A stretch of 64,000 bases of DNA. Origin: Opitutales bacterium (GTDB lineage Bacteria > Verrucomicrobiota > Verrucomicrobiia > Opitutales > PNEW01). Under the pieces are notes generated by a model. That model saw only the letters and a program-made list of their open reading frames with translations. It made no database searches and was not told the DNA's origin. The stretch's first letter is position 1; every line of letters begins with the position of its first letter. The translations under genes were made by a program, and so were the position numbers. Of this stretch, positions 16,655-60,557 are shown piece after piece. Location: NCBI GenBank assembly GCA_965197745.1, contig CBDANS010000006.1, positions 1,312,001 to 1,376,000 of the forward strand. The letters run 5' to 3'.

Positions 16655-17036
16655 GTGGAACGTGCTGACCCCAGCGCGTTTTGATTTGAAATAAGACTGG
16701 AGGGACGCACTCCGTAGCGTCCGTAGCTATCTAATTCAATTTATATCAATTTTAACGGCCACGACAACGCATGGCCCTCCAGGAAATATGGGGTATGCGT
16801 TAAGGTGAAAATGCGTAAAAGCGTGTAGGCGAGAATGCGGGGAAGACATAACAGGGTGGGATGTGTGTTTGTTTGTCGGTCATTGCCCAAAGAGCGAATA
16901 CTGAACGCGTCCCACCAATATTTTTACCCAAAAATTAGATATTTTACCTTATAACCATGATTAAGGTAGCCGGAGGGACACGCGTCGTCGTGGCCGTAAC
17001 GAAATAATTAGAGCGAAGACTGAGCCCGTCCCACCA
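16655..17036. repeat. Cluster of REP-like palindromic units (GGAGGG(A/C)CRC..GTCGTGGCCG family)
   Basis: Inverted pair 16699-16724 / 16755-16780, a further copy at 16972-16997 and ...GTCCCACC variants. Confidence 0.65.
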
Positions 17037-20040: not shown

Positions 20041-20109
20041 ACGGCCACGACGGAGCGTGGCCCTCCATTTATGGTTTATTTCTGGAGGGCCACGCTCCGT
20101 CGTGGCCGC
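20041..20109. repeat. Inverted pair of REP-like units
   Basis: CGGCCACGACGGAGCGTGGCCCTCCA, short AT spacer, then its exact reverse complement TGGAGGGCCACGCTCCGTCGTGGCCG. Confidence 0.85.
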
Positions 20110-32913: not shown

Positions 32914-32985
32914 ACCGGAACCTGACTGTTGATCCGCCGTCGCAGGACTATGGGGAGTTTTATTGCTGAATGTATTTAGTAATTT

Positions 32986-33075
32986 CACCGCTGAGGCGCA
33001 GAGTATTAAGTTTTAAAATCAAGAATAAGAAACCTTAAATTAAATTCTCAGCGGCCTCTGCTTCTCTGCGTTGAA
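32986..33075. repeat. ACCGCWGAG-family palindromic intergenic element
   Basis: CACCGCTGAGGCGCAGAG..AAACCTTAAATTAAA..CTCAGCGGCCTCTGC; homologs near 43871, 49891, 53920, 54023, 54565, 54735 and 60389. Confidence 0.75.
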
Positions 33076-33173
33076 TCGCTTCAATCCACAATCGTCCGGG
33101 GGACGAAGTCCGACATCTTCCAAATTCCATTTCCCATATACGCATCTCCGCATTCGCGCATATACATATTCCT

Positions 33174-34946: not shown

Positions 34947-35043
34947 GAAGCGACCAAGGTGATGTCGGGCTTCACCCACGGGTGGATTTGGCGAAGGGGC
35001 TCCCCGCCATGATGATCCTGAATCACTCTCTTTATCCTCTACC

Positions 35044-35106
35044 ATGCATCCTGTATCTTGCATCCTGCATCCTGCATCCTGAATCCTGTCTCCTGCATCC
35101 CGCATC
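35044..35106. repeat. Heptamer tandem repeat (GCATCCT)n, degenerate
   Basis: atgcatcctgtatcttgcatcctgcatcctgcatcctgaatcctgtctcctgcatcccgcatc. Confidence 0.85.
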
Positions 35107-35109
35107 AGA

Positions 35110-41849: not shown

Positions 41850-42191
41850 GGCCTCTCAATTTTCGAATTTCGAGTTTCGATTGTCGATTGAAAATTGCTG
41901 ATTGTCGAATGAAGAATAGCCACTACCGAGCCCCGTTGCTGCGGGGCGACATCTTCCAAAGGCACAAAAAAAAGAGCGATTATTAAAAGTAAGATTCACG
42001 AATTGAAGCGAAGGCGAAGCCCGCCTGTCGACCAAAACCTAGTGTGATGGATTAACATTCTCCATTTAGACCATTAGAAACTTATCCGCGGTATCCATGT
42101 AATCTGCGGTATCCGTGTAATCCGCGGTATTCTTATTATTTTACTCTTGTGCCTTTTGTGCCTTTTGTGGCCAACTCTCAGCAATTACCGT

Positions 42192-43814: not shown

Positions 43815-44097
43815 TAATATTTTATAAATAAAGAATAGCCACAGAAAGCACAAAAGGCACAAAAAAACTAACCGCTGAGGCGCAGAGGACGCGGAGATTT
43901 TAATTTAAAGTTTTATTTTCTCGATTTTATAACATTTCTCGGCGCTATTCGCGTCTCAGGTGATTCAAAGAATACTGACTGCGGATAACGCGGATAACAC
44001 GGATGTTGAGATATGGAGTGTAAGAGTCACGAATATTACCGAGGGCGAAGGCTGACATCCTCCAATTCGATATCAAAGAGAACATGGACATAAAATA

Positions 44098-44252
44098 TTT
44101 CGTCGTGTCGAGAGTCGCCTACGCTTCACTCGCGTTTGCGAGGACAAGAACGTACCACTCACGAATATACACAACTAATTGCGTATATTCGTGAGAGGTA
44201 GTTCAAAACGCGCTTTTAGCGCTAAGCGTAGGCGACTCTCGACACGACGGAA
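44098..44252. mobile_element. ~155-bp palindromic MITE-like element, copy 1
   Basis: 28-bp terminal inverted repeats (1 mismatch) enclosing three hairpins; homolog at 51678-51831. Confidence 0.7.
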
Positions 44253-44409
44253 CCTTTATCGCCCTATTAGAAACTAATCCGTGTAATCCGCGGTATTATT
44301 AAACTTTTTGCTTTCTCTCTCTCTCTTGTGCCTTTTGTGGCCAACTCTTTCTTTTGGCTATTCACCAATCAGCAATTGATATTAAATCTATTCTCTAACT
44401 ACAATTAAA

Positions 44410-49853: not shown

Positions 49854-50025
49854 TTTTCAATTGTCGATTGCCGATTGATTAATTATACTAACCGCTGAGT
49901 CGCAGGGTTCGCCGAGATTTTTTAATTTGGGATTTCTTTTTCTTGGGTTTAAAGCTTTTTACTCTGCGTTCTCCGTGTCTCTGCGGTATATTTCTTCAAT
50001 CAATAATAGGCAATGGTATGTGAAA

Positions 50026-51388: not shown

Positions 51389-51677
51389 ATGTTCTCCGCT
51401 TGGAAATTTGTGGATATAGACAAAATCTCCTTATTCCGTCAATTATCGATTATCGAATGTTTTCTGAAGATTTACCGCTGAGACGCAAAGGGCGCTGAGA
51501 AATTAGTTTAGAATTTACTAAAGCTGATTTTCAAACCTTTAACTTTACGTGCTCCAATGCTTTGCGGTGATTCAAAGCATCCTAACCGCGAATAACACGG
51601 ATTGATACGGATGGAGAGGTATAGAGTGTAAAATTCACGAATATAAAATAGCTAAAAAAACATAGACAAAGAGGGGT

Positions 51678-51831
51678 TTTCGTCGGGCAGAGAATCACCT
51701 GTGCTATGCGCAAAAGCGCATTTTGAACTGGCTACTTACGAATATACACAACGAGTTGCGTATATTCGTAAGTAGTCGTTTTTGTACTCGCAAACGCGAG
51801 TGAAGCACAGGTGATTCTCTGCCCGACGAAA
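51678..51831. mobile_element. ~154-bp palindromic MITE-like element, copy 2
   Basis: Perfect 28-bp terminal inverted repeat TTTCGTCGGGCAGAGAATCACCTGTGCT plus three internal hairpins. Confidence 0.7.
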
Positions 51832-51928
51832 CCCTTAATCTACTTATCCGCATAATTCGTTTAATCTGCGGTATTAAACTCTGCGTCCTCCGCGTCTCTG
51901 CGGTAAATCTCTTTAATTCGCAATCGGC

Positions 51929-52915: not shown

Positions 52916-53019
52916 TTCAATTTTCGATTTGCGATTGGCGATTGAACCTGGCTGTTATTAAAACTGATACTTGTATCATACCTCGTGGATCCTGAATCGT
53001 GCATCCTGCATCTTGTTAT

Positions 53020-53811
53020 TCAAATCGTCATCGAAGAAAACCCACCGTCTACGACAAATTCGCTGCCGGTGATGAAGGACCCTGCCTGATCACTGGCCAT
53101 AAGTATTGTCGCACCAATAAGTTCACTGGCTTCGCCAAACCGACTCATGGGCGTGTGGCGCATTATATTTTCGAGCCTTTCGCCCACCAGATATTTACGA
53201 TTCAAGTCGGTGGGAAAGAAACCGGGGACAAGCGTATTCACGCGGATATTATGGGGGGCCCATTCGCGAGCGAGATTTTTGGAAATATTGTGAACAGCTG
53301 CCTTTGTAGCGGAGTAGGTAAAAACGCGAGAAAGCGGGATGAGCCCCGACATCGAGCCGATATTAATCATGCTGCCCGTAATTTTATTTTCTATCATGTA
53401 ACTACCGAATATCTGGCTCGTGAAAATAATCGATTTCAAGTTGATGTTGAGAATATTTTCAAGTTCATCTTCTTGAATATCGACAAAAGGTGTGGGAGCG
53501 GTAGTACCCGCACCATTTACAAGGATGTCCACTTTTCCTGATTTTTTTATCACCCGCGTGAGCAATTCTTTGACTTCTTCTTTTTGGGTAACGTCAGCGC
53601 GTTCAAAGTAGGCTTTATCCTGGAATTGATGAATATTTTTAAGACGCGCTACAGCTTTCTCTTCGTCGCGTCCAACAAGCACTACTTCAGCGCCAGCGCC
53701 GGCCAATCCTTCAGCCATCGCCCCGCAGAGCACCCCCGTGCCCCCGATAATAACCGCCGTTTTTCCCTCGAGTCCGAAAAGTTTGTTTAAATATTCCAGG
53801 TTATTATTCAC
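53020..53811 (-). CDS. SDR oxidoreductase (gluconate 5-dehydrogenase/KduD-like)
   Basis: [39 protein letters not shown]. Confidence 0.85.
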
Positions 53812-54022
53812 CGCAGAGGCGCAAAGAGCGCAGAGTTAATTTTTTAGATTTTTGTTTTAGTAATATTCGAAATTTAATTATCAACGAGCTCAGCAAATTG
53901 GCAATTAATACTTATTTCTCACCGCTGAGTTCGAACAACAAAAAGAAAAGCCATATTATCAAGAAAAGAAAACCCTAAATTAAAAGTCTCAGCACCTCAG
54001 CTGTTAACGACTAATATTCATC

Positions 54023-54685
54023 GCAGAGACACTTAATAAATTAAGGTTATAATAACCACTGTTTCGCGGAGAGCGCCTGAAAAGCTATAAGATCAATAAA
54101 TTAAAACCCTAAATTAAAAAACTCAGCGCCCTCAGCGGTGAACGACTACTATTCAGGAAGTTGATTCACTATACGTTTTATACCGCATTTTAATAAATGA
54201 GTGTTAAAGTTTATAATTAGACCGATATTAAAATTGGTTAATTTTAAATAAGTCAAAAGTTGGGCTTCGTGGATGGGTTGATTATATTCTACAGCTTTTA
54301 ATTCAAGTATTAACCTATCTTCTACAAGAATATCTATGCGATATCCTGCTTTTAACTTTAGCCCCTTATAATTGATGGGCAATTCTAACTGACGCTTAAA
54401 TGATATCTTTCTATTTTCTAATTCGTAAGCAAGGCACGTTTCATAAGCGGATTCTAATAAACCTGGTCCGAGCTGCTTATGAACATCAATAGAAGCACCA
54501 ATTACCGTTTCCGTTAACCCATCATCTTTATCAGTCATCTCCACATCCCCCATTCCTAATTACGGCAGAGACACTTAATAAATTAAGGTTATAATTACCA
54601 CTGTGTCGCGGAGAGCGCCTGAAAAGCTATAAAATCAATAAATTAAAACCCTAAATTAAAAAACTCAGCGACCTCAGCGGTGAAC
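54023..54685 (+). repeat. 121-bp direct repeats (54023-54143, 54565-54685) flanking the GxxExxY gene
   Basis: Manual alignment shows 4 mismatches in 121 bp. Confidence 0.93.
54149..54553 (-). CDS. GxxExxY protein (PD-(D/E)XK nuclease fold)
   Basis: VHKQLGPGLLESAYE, YRIDILVEDRLILELKAV, HEAQLLTYLK, GLIINF. Confidence 0.93.
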   Translation of the reverse strand: MGDVEMTDKDDGLTETVIGASIDVHKQLGPGLLESAYETCLAYELENRKISFKRQLELPINYKGLKLKAGYRIDILVEDRLILELKAVEYNQPIHEAQLLTYLKLTNFNIGLIINFNTHLLKCGIKRIVNQLPE

Positions 54686-54801
54686 ATAAATATTTACTTC
54701 CAAACCGTTGGTAACCCAGAGGAAAAGTAAATGAATCAAGAAAACCCACCCTAAATTAAAATCTCGGCGACCTCTGCGCCTCCGCGGTGAATCTTAAAAA
54801 T

Positions 54802-55887
54802 TCAACGTTTAATTCGGGCGCTGCCGCCTTTAGCGACGTGTTCTACTTCTTCCAGGGTTATTTGTGAAGTGTCTCCACCGGTGGATTGCAGAAGGGCACC
54901 GTGCGCTGCACTGAAATCCGCGATTTCCTGCGGCTCCATAGCGTTGAGAAAGCCGTAAGCGACACCGCTGGAGAATCCGTCACCGCCACCAACGCGATCT
55001 TCAATTTCAAGATCCTCAAATCGGGTCGATTCATAAAAACGGTCATCGTGCCAAAGAATTCCGCTCCAATTATTGATCAGTCCGCTTTTAACTTCGCGCA
55101 GAGTAGTACAGACGACTTTGACATTGGGGTAGGTGTCGACAACACGTTCAACCATCTTTTTAAAACCTTCAATGGGGAGTTCCTTTAAATTTTCATCCAC
55201 ACCTTCGACTTCAAATCCCAGTGCTTTTTGAAAATCTTCCTCATTGCCGATGAGCACATCCACATGGGGAGCGATACTGGTATTAGCGGCAATAGCTTCC
55301 TCTGAGCTCCACAACTTGGAGCGGAAATTGAGATCGTAGCTGACAACGGTACCGTTCTCGTGCGCCGCCGTCGCTGCTTCATTGACTATTTTTGCGCAGT
55401 GAGGACTGAGCGCGCTCATGATTCCACCCGTATGTAACCATCGGGTCTTCTGTTTTTCAAAAATATCCTTGTAATCAAAATCAGATGGATCCGCCAGGGA
55501 TATCGCGCTTTGGCCGCGATCATACATCGTCACTGAAGCGCGCACCCCGGTGCCCACTTCGGTAAAGTTGAGACCGACGCGGCCCGCGCGCCCGATACCG
55601 TCGTATTCTTCCATTATGACATTGGAGGTATCCATGCCAACGGCGCGGGCGTGGTTAATTAAGATTTTGCCTACAGGATTGTCGGGCAGTTTACTGACAA
55701 AACCCCCACGCAGTCCCAATCGTGATATGGCGTAGGCCACATTGTACTCACCGCCACCTGCCCAAACTTCCAGGGTTTGAGCATACTCCAGTCGACCGTG
55801 ACCACCGGGTGAAAGGCGAATCATGCATTCGCCGAGGGAGAGTAGATCGAACTTCGTTTCTGAGGAATCAAGCGTTTGAATGCTCAT
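54802..55887 (-). CDS. kdgK: PfkB family sugar kinase, 2-dehydro-3-deoxygluconokinase-like
   Basis: LGECMIRL, GGGEYNVA, SYDLNFRSKLW, DRVGGGDGF. Confidence 0.8.
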   Translation of the reverse strand: MSIQTLDSSETKFDLLSLGECMIRLSPGGHGRLEYAQTLEVWAGGGEYNVAYAISRLGLRGGFVSKLPDNPVGKILINHARAVGMDTSNVIMEEYDGIGRAGRVGLNFTEVGTGVRASVTMYDRGQSAISLADPSDFDYKDIFEKQKTRWLHTGGIMSALSPHCAKIVNEAATAAHENGTVVSYDLNFRSKLWSSEEAIAANTSIAPHVDVLIGNEEDFQKALGFEVEGVDENLKELPIEGFKKMVERVVDTYPNVKVVCTTLREVKSGLINNWSGILWHDDRFYESTRFEDLEIEDRVGGGDGFSSGVAYGFLNAMEPQEIADFSAAHGALLQSTGGDTSQITLEEVEHVAKGGSARIKR

Positions 55888-57225: not shown

Positions 57226-57480
57226 ATTGCGATTGAAGAGATTAACCGCAGAGACGCGAAGAACGCAGAGTTTAATACCGCAGATTAAACGAATTAAGCG
57301 GATAAGTAGATTAGAGGTAGATAAAGGGTTTCTCCTCTTTTTCTATGTTTTTTTAGCTATTTTATATTCGTGAATTTTATACTCTATACCTCTCCATCCG
57401 TATCAATCCGTGTAATTCGCGGTTAGAATGCTTTGAATCACCGCAGAGCATTGGAGCACGTAAAGTTAAAGGTATGAAAA
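57226..57480 (-). repeat. Inverted copy of the 51530-51925 composite spacer lacking the palindromic insert
   Basis: Reverse complement matches ~51530-51674 and ~51828-51925 with few substitutions. Confidence 0.88.
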
Positions 57481-58440
57481 TTATACATCATTAGCTTGGG
57501 CGAGAGGGGGTCTGCCTTCAAAGAAATTGATGAGATTTCTCGTAGCCATACCGGCCTGTCGCTGCACGCTCTGGAAGGTCCGCGATCCGATATGCGGAGT
57601 GATAATACAGTTTTTTGCTTTTAAAAGGGGGTGATCAGCTGGAGGTGGTTCACGATCGAGAACATCGGCGCCATAACCACCCACTTGATCATTGTCTAAG
57701 GCGCGGACCAGTGCGGCAGTGTCGATAAGTTCCCCTCGCGCGGTGTTAAGAATAATCACTCCCGGTTTCATTAAACCGATTTGCTCCGCATCGATCATGT
57801 GACGCGTGTGATCATTAAGTTTAGTATGAAGGCTGATAATATCCGCATTCGCAAAAAGCGCGTTTAAGGAATGACAACGTTCTATCGAGTGCTCTTTGCC
57901 AAAATCGTCATCCCAGTAATTACCATAAGCCATGACTTTCAGCCCAAATGCTTTTGCCCGTATCGCCACTTCCTTTCCGATCCTGCCGAGACCGACAATT
58001 CCCATCGTCTTCCCCATAATTTCGTTACCGGTGAGCCGTTTCCAGTCTCCCTCTCGGGTATAATTAGCTTCGGTCACAATTTTACGCTCCAGTCCCAAAA
58101 GGAGACCGAATGTATGTTCCGCCACGGTTGTGTGGTTAACGCCGGGAGTGAAGAGCACGGGTATCTTTTTCTCCGTGGCGTAAACGACATCAATCTTATC
58201 GAGACCAATACCGTATTTACTGATGACTTTAAGTTGAGGAAGAGATTTATCAATTACGGCACTTGTAATGGCATCATCGCCGCAGAGAAATCCATCAATG
58301 GTCCCGACACAATCCAGCATTTGTTTTTCAGTAAGCGGCCCGCGTTCGCGAACGATTTCAAAATTAGCATCTTCCAGCAATTGGTGATGTTCACCCGGAT
58401 TATCCTGGTAGGATGTTGTTGTGAGTAAGATACGTGGCAT
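57481..58440 (-). CDS. D-isomer-specific 2-hydroxyacid dehydrogenase (phosphoglycerate dehydrogenase-like)
   Basis: KYGIGLDKID, VAEH, GIVGLGRIG, NTARG, ITPHIGS; start at ATG 58440; no ACT domain. Confidence 0.88.
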   Translation of the reverse strand: MPRILLTTTSYQDNPGEHHQLLEDANFEIVRERGPLTEKQMLDCVGTIDGFLCGDDAITSAVIDKSLPQLKVISKYGIGLDKIDVVYATEKKIPVLFTPGVNHTTVAEHTFGLLLGLERKIVTEANYTREGDWKRLTGNEIMGKTMGIVGLGRIGKEVAIRAKAFGLKVMAYGNYWDDDFGKEHSIERCHSLNALFANADIISLHTKLNDHTRHMIDAEQIGLMKPGVIILNTARGELIDTAALVRALDNDQVGGYGADVLDREPPPADHPLLKAKNCIITPHIGSRTFQSVQRQAGMATRNLINFFEGRPPLAQANDV

Positions 58441-58444
58441 ATTT

Positions 58445-58503
58445 CGATTGTCGATCGATTGTCGATTGTCGATTGTCGATTGTCGATTGTCGATTGTCGA
58501 TTG
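58445..58503. repeat. Heptamer tandem repeat (CGATTGT)n
   Basis: Six perfect units at 58456-58497 plus flanking units. Confidence 0.92.
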
Positions 58504-58667
58504 AAGAATAGCTACAAAAAGCACAAAAGACACAAGAGAATTAAGGAAATGAATAGCTACCACCGGGTCCTGCAGCTGCGGTATGGGTTGCAGAATACAG
58601 GTCGAATCTAACGGATACGTTATGGTATATCAACCTCTGAACCCTGAACCCCGAACCCTATGATTTC

Positions 58668-60247: not shown

Positions 60248-60557
60248 TGTCGATTGCTAATTGAATAGATTTACCGCAGAGGCGCAGAGCACGCAAAGTT
60301 TATTTTAGAATTTTGGTATGGTACTTTTCATAATTAAATTTTCAGCACCGTCAGAACCTTATCGGTTTTCATTTGTTATTCGCCGTATAACCGCGGATAG
60401 CGCCGAGATAAAGTTGTGAAAAACAATAAAATAAAACCTTAAATTAAAATCTCAGCGCTCTCTGCGCCTCAGCGGTGAATTTTCTTAATACAATTGGCAA
60501 TCGAAAATCGTTTCAGGCTTTATATTGGATGATTAACAGGGTTTACTTAATAAGATT

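Follow-up and report, generated by a model that had tools for sequence, protein, structure and literature searches.

What moved when a small nuclease gene came to lie in the middle of an operon, and does the pair of near-identical direct repeats around it record its arrival? The question is posed by a 64,000-nucleotide window (the whole stretch of DNA that was analysed) from the genome of an Opitutales bacterium (4.45 Mb, 92% complete). An intact GxxExxY ORF of 134 amino acids (54149-54553) is located between a PfkB-family kinase gene (54802-55887), named kdgK here after the usage of the original prediction, and an SDR gene (53020-53811); all three are on the minus strand. The ORF is AT-rich (GC 0.34; GC3 0.28 compared with 0.44-0.51 in four neighbours). 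The low GC3 fits a foreign copy and gives no date. Judged from the spacing to a purine-rich stretch, the true start of the gene may be the second ATG at 54541. The ORF sits inside a pair of 121-bp direct repeats (54023-54143 and 54565-54685, 542 bp apart) which differ by 4 mismatches; 5 bp separate it from the repeat on the stop side and 11 bp on the start side. Operon position, composition, repeats and gaps are as the original prediction had described them. It had further read the repeat pair as the scar of integration or excision of a unit consisting of the gene and one repeat.

The kdgK-SDR gap measures 991 nt here compared with 32-218 nt at gene-less junctions without another ORF, and a comparison of the gaps delimits an insert of 987 bp (53806-54792). 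On the gene's strand the order is kdgK stop codon, outer left arm in module M4, module M3, gene, modules M2 and M1, module M0 with the outer right arm, and SDR. All these features are on the minus strand. In a module, an AT-rich core is framed by two inverted arms, both composed of phased 8-9-bp units, and each 121-bp repeat is one complete gene-less module. M3 (54565-54685), the upstream copy, consists of a two-unit left arm, an AT-rich core, a decayed right arm and a tail ending in a single right-arm unit; M2 (54023-54143) is the downstream copy. M1 (53915-54005) is an older, decayed module which aligns in the same orientation. It is closer to a module 600 kb away than to M2, and M1 and M0 together are similar to a composite at G000:C6:770182-770377.

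Two features were absent from the original account. First, the insert is bounded by outer arms. The outer left arm (54763-54792; three phased 8-9-bp units, 21 of 23 consensus positions) starts about 10 bp past the kdgK stop codon and is the left end of the decayed module M4 (about 54695-54792). The outer right arm (53806-53835; three units, 22 of 23 positions) is the right end of M0 (about 53806-53900), and its tip overlaps the GTG (53809-53811) which opens the SDR frame. Second, a 15-nt stretch comprising the 3' end of the gene, its stop codon and the spacer (54141-54155) is repeated between M2 and M1 (54006-54020) with one mismatch (14/15). The outer arms are better preserved than the inner arms, and they pair with each other in the MFE and centroid folds of the whole insert. 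Decay has affected the inner arms; in folding, M2 and M3 do not surpass shuffled sequences (z -1.3), and an intact module elsewhere in the window (60375-60490) folds at z -3.5. The likelier mobile unit is the whole 987-bp insert, bounded by inverted three-unit arrays. As to the downstream neighbour, the SDR codon aligned with the ATG of the relatives G001 and G002 reads CTG, and the frame opens at the GTG in the outer right arm (53800-53811). Possibly the end of the repeat supplies the SDR start codon.

The six gene-less modules listed in the original prediction align with the repeat. In addition to those in the insert we located a module of the same family at 32983-33076, two in opposite orientation at 43861-43960 and 49880-50001, and the well-preserved module at 60375-60490, which forms the right part of a composite starting near 60269. 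The source genome contains 26 three-unit arms; a third copy of the 121-bp repeat at more than 85% identity was not found anywhere in it. Six of the seven pairs of repeat sites with at least 93% identity are no more than 13 kb apart and occur in both orientations, and three of these close pairs have no GxxExxY gene between them. Local copying of gene-less repeats is therefore common, and insertion of a gene is not needed to obtain near-identical pairs.

The protein matches PF13366 (E 1e-42, 145.5 bits, curated cut-off 22), its only Pfam match, and the GxxExxY model TIGR04256 (E 5e-45, 152.8 bits, cut-off 35). E34, D74 and K86 are kept in 173 of 173 homologous rows, E84 in 168 of 173, and the QxxxY motif is conserved. 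The structural neighbours of a model with pLDDT 92 are nearly all PD-(D/E)XK enzymes, which together with the active-site residues bears out the fold named in the original prediction. Cas4 proteins are the top Foldseek rows (E 0.003, TM 0.47-0.56), SwaI leads a wide search, and the catalytic domain of I-Bth0305I is a weak row; with no match at E ≤0.001 and no Z above 8.0 these matches are generic. TnsA was not among the structural rows displayed, which leaves room for a likeness to it. A Y1, DDE or Fe-S Cas4 identity was excluded on the grounds of the sole Pfam match, the PD-(D/E)XK fold and the lack of conserved cysteines. Close pairs of homologs have a dN of 0.01-0.16 and, in the 11 of 15 with computable dS, a dN/dS of 0.03-0.17; dS was saturated in the other 4. 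The protein thus keeps an intact active site under purifying selection and is most likely an active nuclease. GxxExxY genes occur in 149 of the 301 genomes of the order and in many phyla. According to the parts of a family survey available to us, the GxxExxY/PDDEXK_3 family has no assigned function and underwent multiple transfers (PMC3424549), and the literature and listings examined, in part as excerpts, link neither repeats nor mobility to it.

Next, the junction was compared in relatives. Among the 30 best SDR orthologues in the 301 genomes, 22 have kdgK upstream in the locus. A GxxExxY gene occupies the kdgK-SDR gap in 8 of these 22, the source genome included; all are co-oriented with the operon, and their arm sequences differ. 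In the remaining 14 the gap is short and plain (32-66 nt in three) or contains other repeat types, a remnant or another gene; GxxExxY is not a constant part of the locus, as the original prediction had anticipated. Three genomes of the same family have the junction without a GxxExxY gene and with other repeats instead; G004 carries the gene and G024 a deleted remnant. In one genus (g13) the SDRs are 90-94% identical and the junction nucleases only 53-61%. Monophyly of the three g13 junction nucleases was rejected (AU p 1e-5) and that of five junction genes of one family weakly so (p 0.03); the g13 and family groups were defined by junction and host genus at a stage when earlier trees were already known. 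A wider test, of one origin for seven junction genes from several families, did not reject it (p 0.28). A 114-row tree, its careful search cut short, had few columns. The identity contrast in g13 and the rejected monophyly indicate that the slot is re-used. Hence the kdgK-SDR slot is long used and re-occupied and not the site of a one-off recent insertion.

Other states of the slot were observed as well. In L171 (G164) four tandem left arms follow each other at 130-bp spacing (563-1010); the 130-bp unit consists of a kdgK-like 3' end, a left arm and the first bases of the nuclease gene, which is local amplification at a cassette end. Three genomes (G129, G161 and G176; loci L158, L160 and L162) have gene-less inverted arrays at the same junction, with short units of a different family. 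The slot thus attracts several repeat systems. At a different junction, which we take to be gatA-gatB-like, a GxxExxY cassette is present in three genera of family f34 (L124, L125, L129); the proteins are 92-97% identical and dS of the pairs is above 2 or saturated. Some cassettes have thus stayed in place for a long time.

Is the arrangement at the source locus typical? We used 156 distinct homologous loci whose flanks reach 300 bp or more in both directions, obtained from 173 located rows after repeated fetches and short flanks had been dropped. Inverted repeats flank 83 of the 156 loci and 0 of 112 control windows; the enrichment of flanking repeats which the original prediction proposed does exist, in inverted form. 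Direct repeats scoring at least 30 were detected at 18 of 156 loci compared with 1 of 112 controls, and direct repeats of at least 60 bp at 90% identity or more at 7, the source locus included. L227, from another protein clade, is an independent module-gene-module case (131 bp, 97%); others have modules arrayed in tandem on either side. Flanking by inverted arms is the usual state, and direct repeats arise repeatedly as a side product.

Arm type clusters on the protein tree, with 8 changes compared with 17.8 after shuffling (0 of 200 shuffles as low; 132 of 173 rows labelled); the test is weakened by few rows in the minor types, by motifs picked after the loci had been seen and by related rows. 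The three-unit arm pattern is present in 101 of 149 gene-positive and in 10 of 152 gene-negative genomes. Repeat presence thus follows gene presence, as had been surmised, and the table overstates the association by including related genomes and small genomes which lack both. Among gene-negative genomes of at least 2.5 Mb, in a list read by hand, 7 of 47 have arms. Five of the ten gene-negative, arm-bearing genomes were searched again with the family model, and no gene was found in them; one, 87% complete, has 36 arms. Conversely, 48 of 149 gene-positive genomes lack the three-unit pattern, the one arm type counted. A genome may have up to 177 arms.

The upstream neighbour is co-oriented with the nuclease gene at 92 of 108 callable loci (59 were uncallable). 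In one metagenome-assembled genome two loci, L046 and L048, have genes with 99.4% identity; the identity ends at the outer arm ends, and the flanks differ. As the genome is binned, the two could stem from two strains instead of being two copies. A second identical pair, L194 and L198, shares 69 and 125 bp beyond the gene, past the arms. L219 (G114:C3:1809520-1810622) has two near-identical GxxExxY genes 758 bp apart, with modules between and around them. The second family member of the source genome, L024 (G000:C6:924600-925010), is frameshifted, has its own arm type and is orthologous by position to copies in G001 and G002. In G024 there are at least seven gene fragments which retain only the 5' part (about the first 43 profile positions), possibly a family of truncated derivatives.

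From comparison of sequences, then, one intergenic slot has seen gain, loss and replacement of the cassette, which usually follows a host gene of the same orientation; the outer arm tips can be the ends of a copy, and arm type follows the protein clade. The gene-plus-repeat cassette apparently is a small mobile DNA of an undescribed kind. With slightly more confidence than doubt we favour a widespread selfish or semi-domesticated system in which the nuclease would recognise the phased units and cut the arm tips, and host repair would copy the arm-bounded DNA. The nuclease would bind the phased units as double-stranded DNA. It would cut at or beside the arm tip, where both ends have a conserved TT immediately outside the first unit. 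Host recombinational repair would then copy the arm-bounded segment into the break; it is required since a hydrolytic nuclease alone cannot join DNA. Such steps would give rise to units that end at the arms, to arm-bearing slots that are re-occupied, to internal deletion down to gene-less modules, to local copying of modules and to the absence of a target duplication.

The best-surviving rival, considerably less probable, is that the nuclease is domesticated or a passenger. The arms would then serve it as operator sites or transcript hairpins, retained because they act in regulation or in the processing of RNA; another enzyme or general recombination would have spread them, and replacement at the junction would be ordinary gene conversion. 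Strong purifying selection and the long residence at some junctions would fit this, as would co-orientation with the upstream gene and the arms that persist without a gene in some genomes. Moreover, the outer arms form one stem with the whole insert as its loop, and both imperfect positions of this stem read G.U on the mRNA strand. Yet over 104 of 167 loci arm pairing on the transcribed strand has no overall G.U bias (165 G.U versus 160 A.C); two subsets, split post hoc, run in opposite directions (103:62 and 62:98). The only Y1 transposase-family gene of the source genome is without arms in roughly 400 bp on each side. Up to 20 family matches in a genome, several of them broken, are unlike a housekeeping gene, and copies ending at arm tips and an arm type that follows the clade fit a dedicated enzyme better.

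How the 121-bp pair came about is a separate issue. The copy of the gene's 3' end on the far side of M2 suggests that the gene was present before M2; this 15-nt repeat is one observation at one locus, and its ends overlap conserved arm-tip letters. Probably the gene and M1 were in place first and M2 is a later copy of M3, i.e. the newer of the pair. A complete copy of M3 might have been placed directly after the stop codon. Alternatively, the M3-plus-gene segment might have undergone duplication at the module tips, followed by loss of the second gene except for 9-15 nt of its end. Either way we infer that the 121-bp pair arose locally at a later time and does not record how the gene arrived.

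The original interpretation, which we now regard as unlikely, was that the gene with one module integrated into a resident module by a single crossover, or was excised likewise, the 121-bp pair being the product. The gene indeed takes up the interval from one copy to the other, and gene plus module add up to the 542-bp spacing. The module-gene-module arrangement recurs (L227; L147; L060), there are layouts of left arm, gene and full module (L047, L053, L061, L117) and tandem genes split by modules (L219), and recombination between the two copies is physically possible. Nevertheless, this reading requires an incoming module with 97% identity to the resident one, and no other copy in the genome exceeds 85%. 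The copy of the gene's 3' end behind M2 stays unexplained. Long direct repeats of this kind, at 7 of 156 loci, contrast with inverted arms at 83, and near-identical repeats are copied locally in this genome without a gene. The single-module empty site expected from the original interpretation was not seen in G001-G003, which have other repeat types at the junction; belonging to another genus, they are a weak test.

Could the insert instead be a transposon proper, moved by cut-and-paste or copy-and-paste, with a partner protein assisting the nuclease in trans? In Tn7 a PD-(D/E)XK protein, TnsA, works with TnsB, and the ends of Tn7 and Mu are multi-site and inverted. The multi-site inverted ends found here resemble those, and discrete copies have matching ends. 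We nonetheless consider such a transposon improbable. At 29 canonical cassettes a target-site duplication was not detected, the longest shared flank word being that of shuffled pairs, and 7 modules had no shared flank word above 5 nt, a test which cannot separate duplications of 2-4 bp from chance. The neighbours in the loci read are varied host genes.

The 121-bp duplication itself is real. Contigs from 4 of 4 public runs (3 studies) break at the 121-bp repeat, as a true repeat demands. Both copy-specific versions are present across the runs, a 496-nt contig links the gene to both copies without a difference in 3 of the 4, and the depth of the gene contig is near that of its flanks. This evidence consists of contigs only, and one of the four runs may be the source sample. 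Run X6 has no cover over the gene, and X1 and X3 have none over kdgK; these gaps were not counted as evidence. The sole listed joint, from 52946 to 53966 (side 28 nt), probably derives from another repeat copy. An assembly artefact, which the original prediction had considered and for which it speaks that no single public contig spans the whole stretch, or a chance duplication unrelated to the gene is hardly credible in view of both repeat versions and the gene-bearing link in runs of three studies and of direct repeats at 18 of 156 homologous loci versus 1 of 112 controls.

We also examined how arms are distributed along chromosomes. In the source genome 8 of 19 arms lie within 100 kb of the gene (p 8e-7). 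The region is enriched in two further arm types as well (3 of 18 and 4 of 16), and clustering near the gene held in one of three other genomes and not in the other two. Local spread of arms around the gene as a general feature was dropped on both counts. In G223 the lone arms change strand at mid-chromosome (3 plus and 20 minus versus 15 plus and 2 minus, p 2.5e-6). Strand polarity of lone arms is strong in G223, borderline in G014 and weak in G146; in the source genome it is not significant (27:18). Most of the 20 G223 arms inspected (L238-L257) are right arms standing alone shortly after a gene of the same orientation, and frequently they are strung together with right arms from other repeat types. 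Replication, transcription or mutation bias may be the cause of the strand switch.

The window contains further repeats. Two mosaics, 51527-51674 with 57334-57481 (96%) and 51831-51917 with 57232-57318 (92%), are in inverted orientation and enclose the whole ADH-SDR-GxxExxY-kdgK-Ldh2 block of 5.4-5.8 kb. The block could flip between them; in G001 and G002 an inversion was not observed, the gene order relative to the 2-hydroxyacid dehydrogenase-like gene being the same. A different hairpin element with 31-34-bp arms is located at 51675-51834 and 44093-44257. It interrupts the mosaic at 51.7 kb and is missing from the inverted twin at 57.3 kb, an occupied/empty pair of a second repeat family. 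REP-like GC-rich palindromes at 16699-16997 and 20042-20108 have a pattern which matches 76 sites in the genome; the examined flanks of its single Y1-family gene (PF01797) contain no REP-like palindromes. Two types of intergenic heptamer tandem arrays are at 58453-58514, 41854-41923 and 35026-35109.

How does this arrangement relate to known systems? With the PD-(D/E)XK family the protein shares the fold and intact acidic and lysine residues. Like Cas4/RecB-family nucleases it has a conserved QxxxY motif, and Cas4 leads the structural matches. In Cas4 four conserved cysteines bind an Fe-S cluster; the protein described here has two cysteines, none of them among the columns conserved at 85%. 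The re-use of one slot resembles homing by PD-(D/E)XK homing endonucleases such as I-Bth0305I, and replacement is compatible with it, cleavage being only predicted here. Unlike with homing endonucleases, introns or inteins were not noticed in the loci read.

The modules share with MITEs that they are gene-less intergenic elements with terminal inverted repeats, here of at least 10 bp, and a gene-carrying counterpart. Bacterial MITEs, as far as the consulted part of the source describes them, are gene-less elements of 50-250 bp with terminal inverted repeats and a target duplication of 2-10 bp (PMC11602168). Unlike MITEs and DDE insertion sequences, the elements examined here had no detectable 2-10-bp target duplication and lack a DDE transposase; further, their copies share the arms and diverge in the cores. 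Catalogues of MITEs, e.g. the supplements of PMC11602168, may contain these modules unnamed. In the open literature, supplements and subscription journals aside, we found no description of a system of GxxExxY genes plus arms. The source locus contributes a series of junctions in which replacement was tested, a measured frequency of direct repeats and evidence that the direct-repeat form is secondary.

GxxExxY genes thereby gain a candidate substrate, the cognate arms, and a testable role, and a possible origin of a large class of intergenic repeats is proposed. At the kdgK-SDR junction the empty, occupied, replaced and decayed states form a natural series on which the mechanism can be studied. 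Tentatively, and with more doubt than confidence, one may go further and regard GxxExxY proteins as motors of a distinct minimal class of mobile elements which operates without a DDE, HUH, serine or tyrosine enzyme and relies on a hydrolytic nuclease of 130 amino acids. The nuclease would read unit arrays and cut arm tips, and host repair would spread, replace and amplify arm-bounded DNA; old arms would serve as landing pads, and polarity as in G223 would possibly be set by replication or transcription. If true, each protein clade would have its own unit sequence, which would make the family a natural series of sequence-specific nucleases.

The closest parallel is with REP/RAYT, and here the analogy drawn by the original prediction holds for the organisation and fails for the type of enzyme and the structure of the repeat. 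In the REPtrons, i.e. REP/BIME/REPIN sequences with a RAYT (TnpA-REP) gene, the sources as far as consulted describe a gene flanked by inverted cognate repeats (PMC2817692, PMC3333891). Similarly, a small nuclease-type gene lies here between inverted cognate repeats, gene-less copies are dispersed in intergenic regions, and repeat type co-varies with enzyme lineage. The same partial sources report low copy number and long residence of REPtrons (PMC5581495) and near-identical tandem copies at one locus which are thought to be locally amplified (PMC3333891). The enzymes differ, a PD-(D/E)XK protein as opposed to an HUH/Y1 tyrosine transposase, the single PF01797 match of this genome being located elsewhere. 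The repeats differ as well: phased 8-9-bp units paired across a module replace a small hairpin with a GTAG-type head. Finally, the whole arm-gene-arm unit appears to be copied and swapped here, whereas REPtrons, in the part of the account consulted, are said not to move as a unit (PMC3333891). If the nuclease drives this movement, a route to DNA mobility which uses only a PD-(D/E)XK enzyme would exist beside REP/RAYT.
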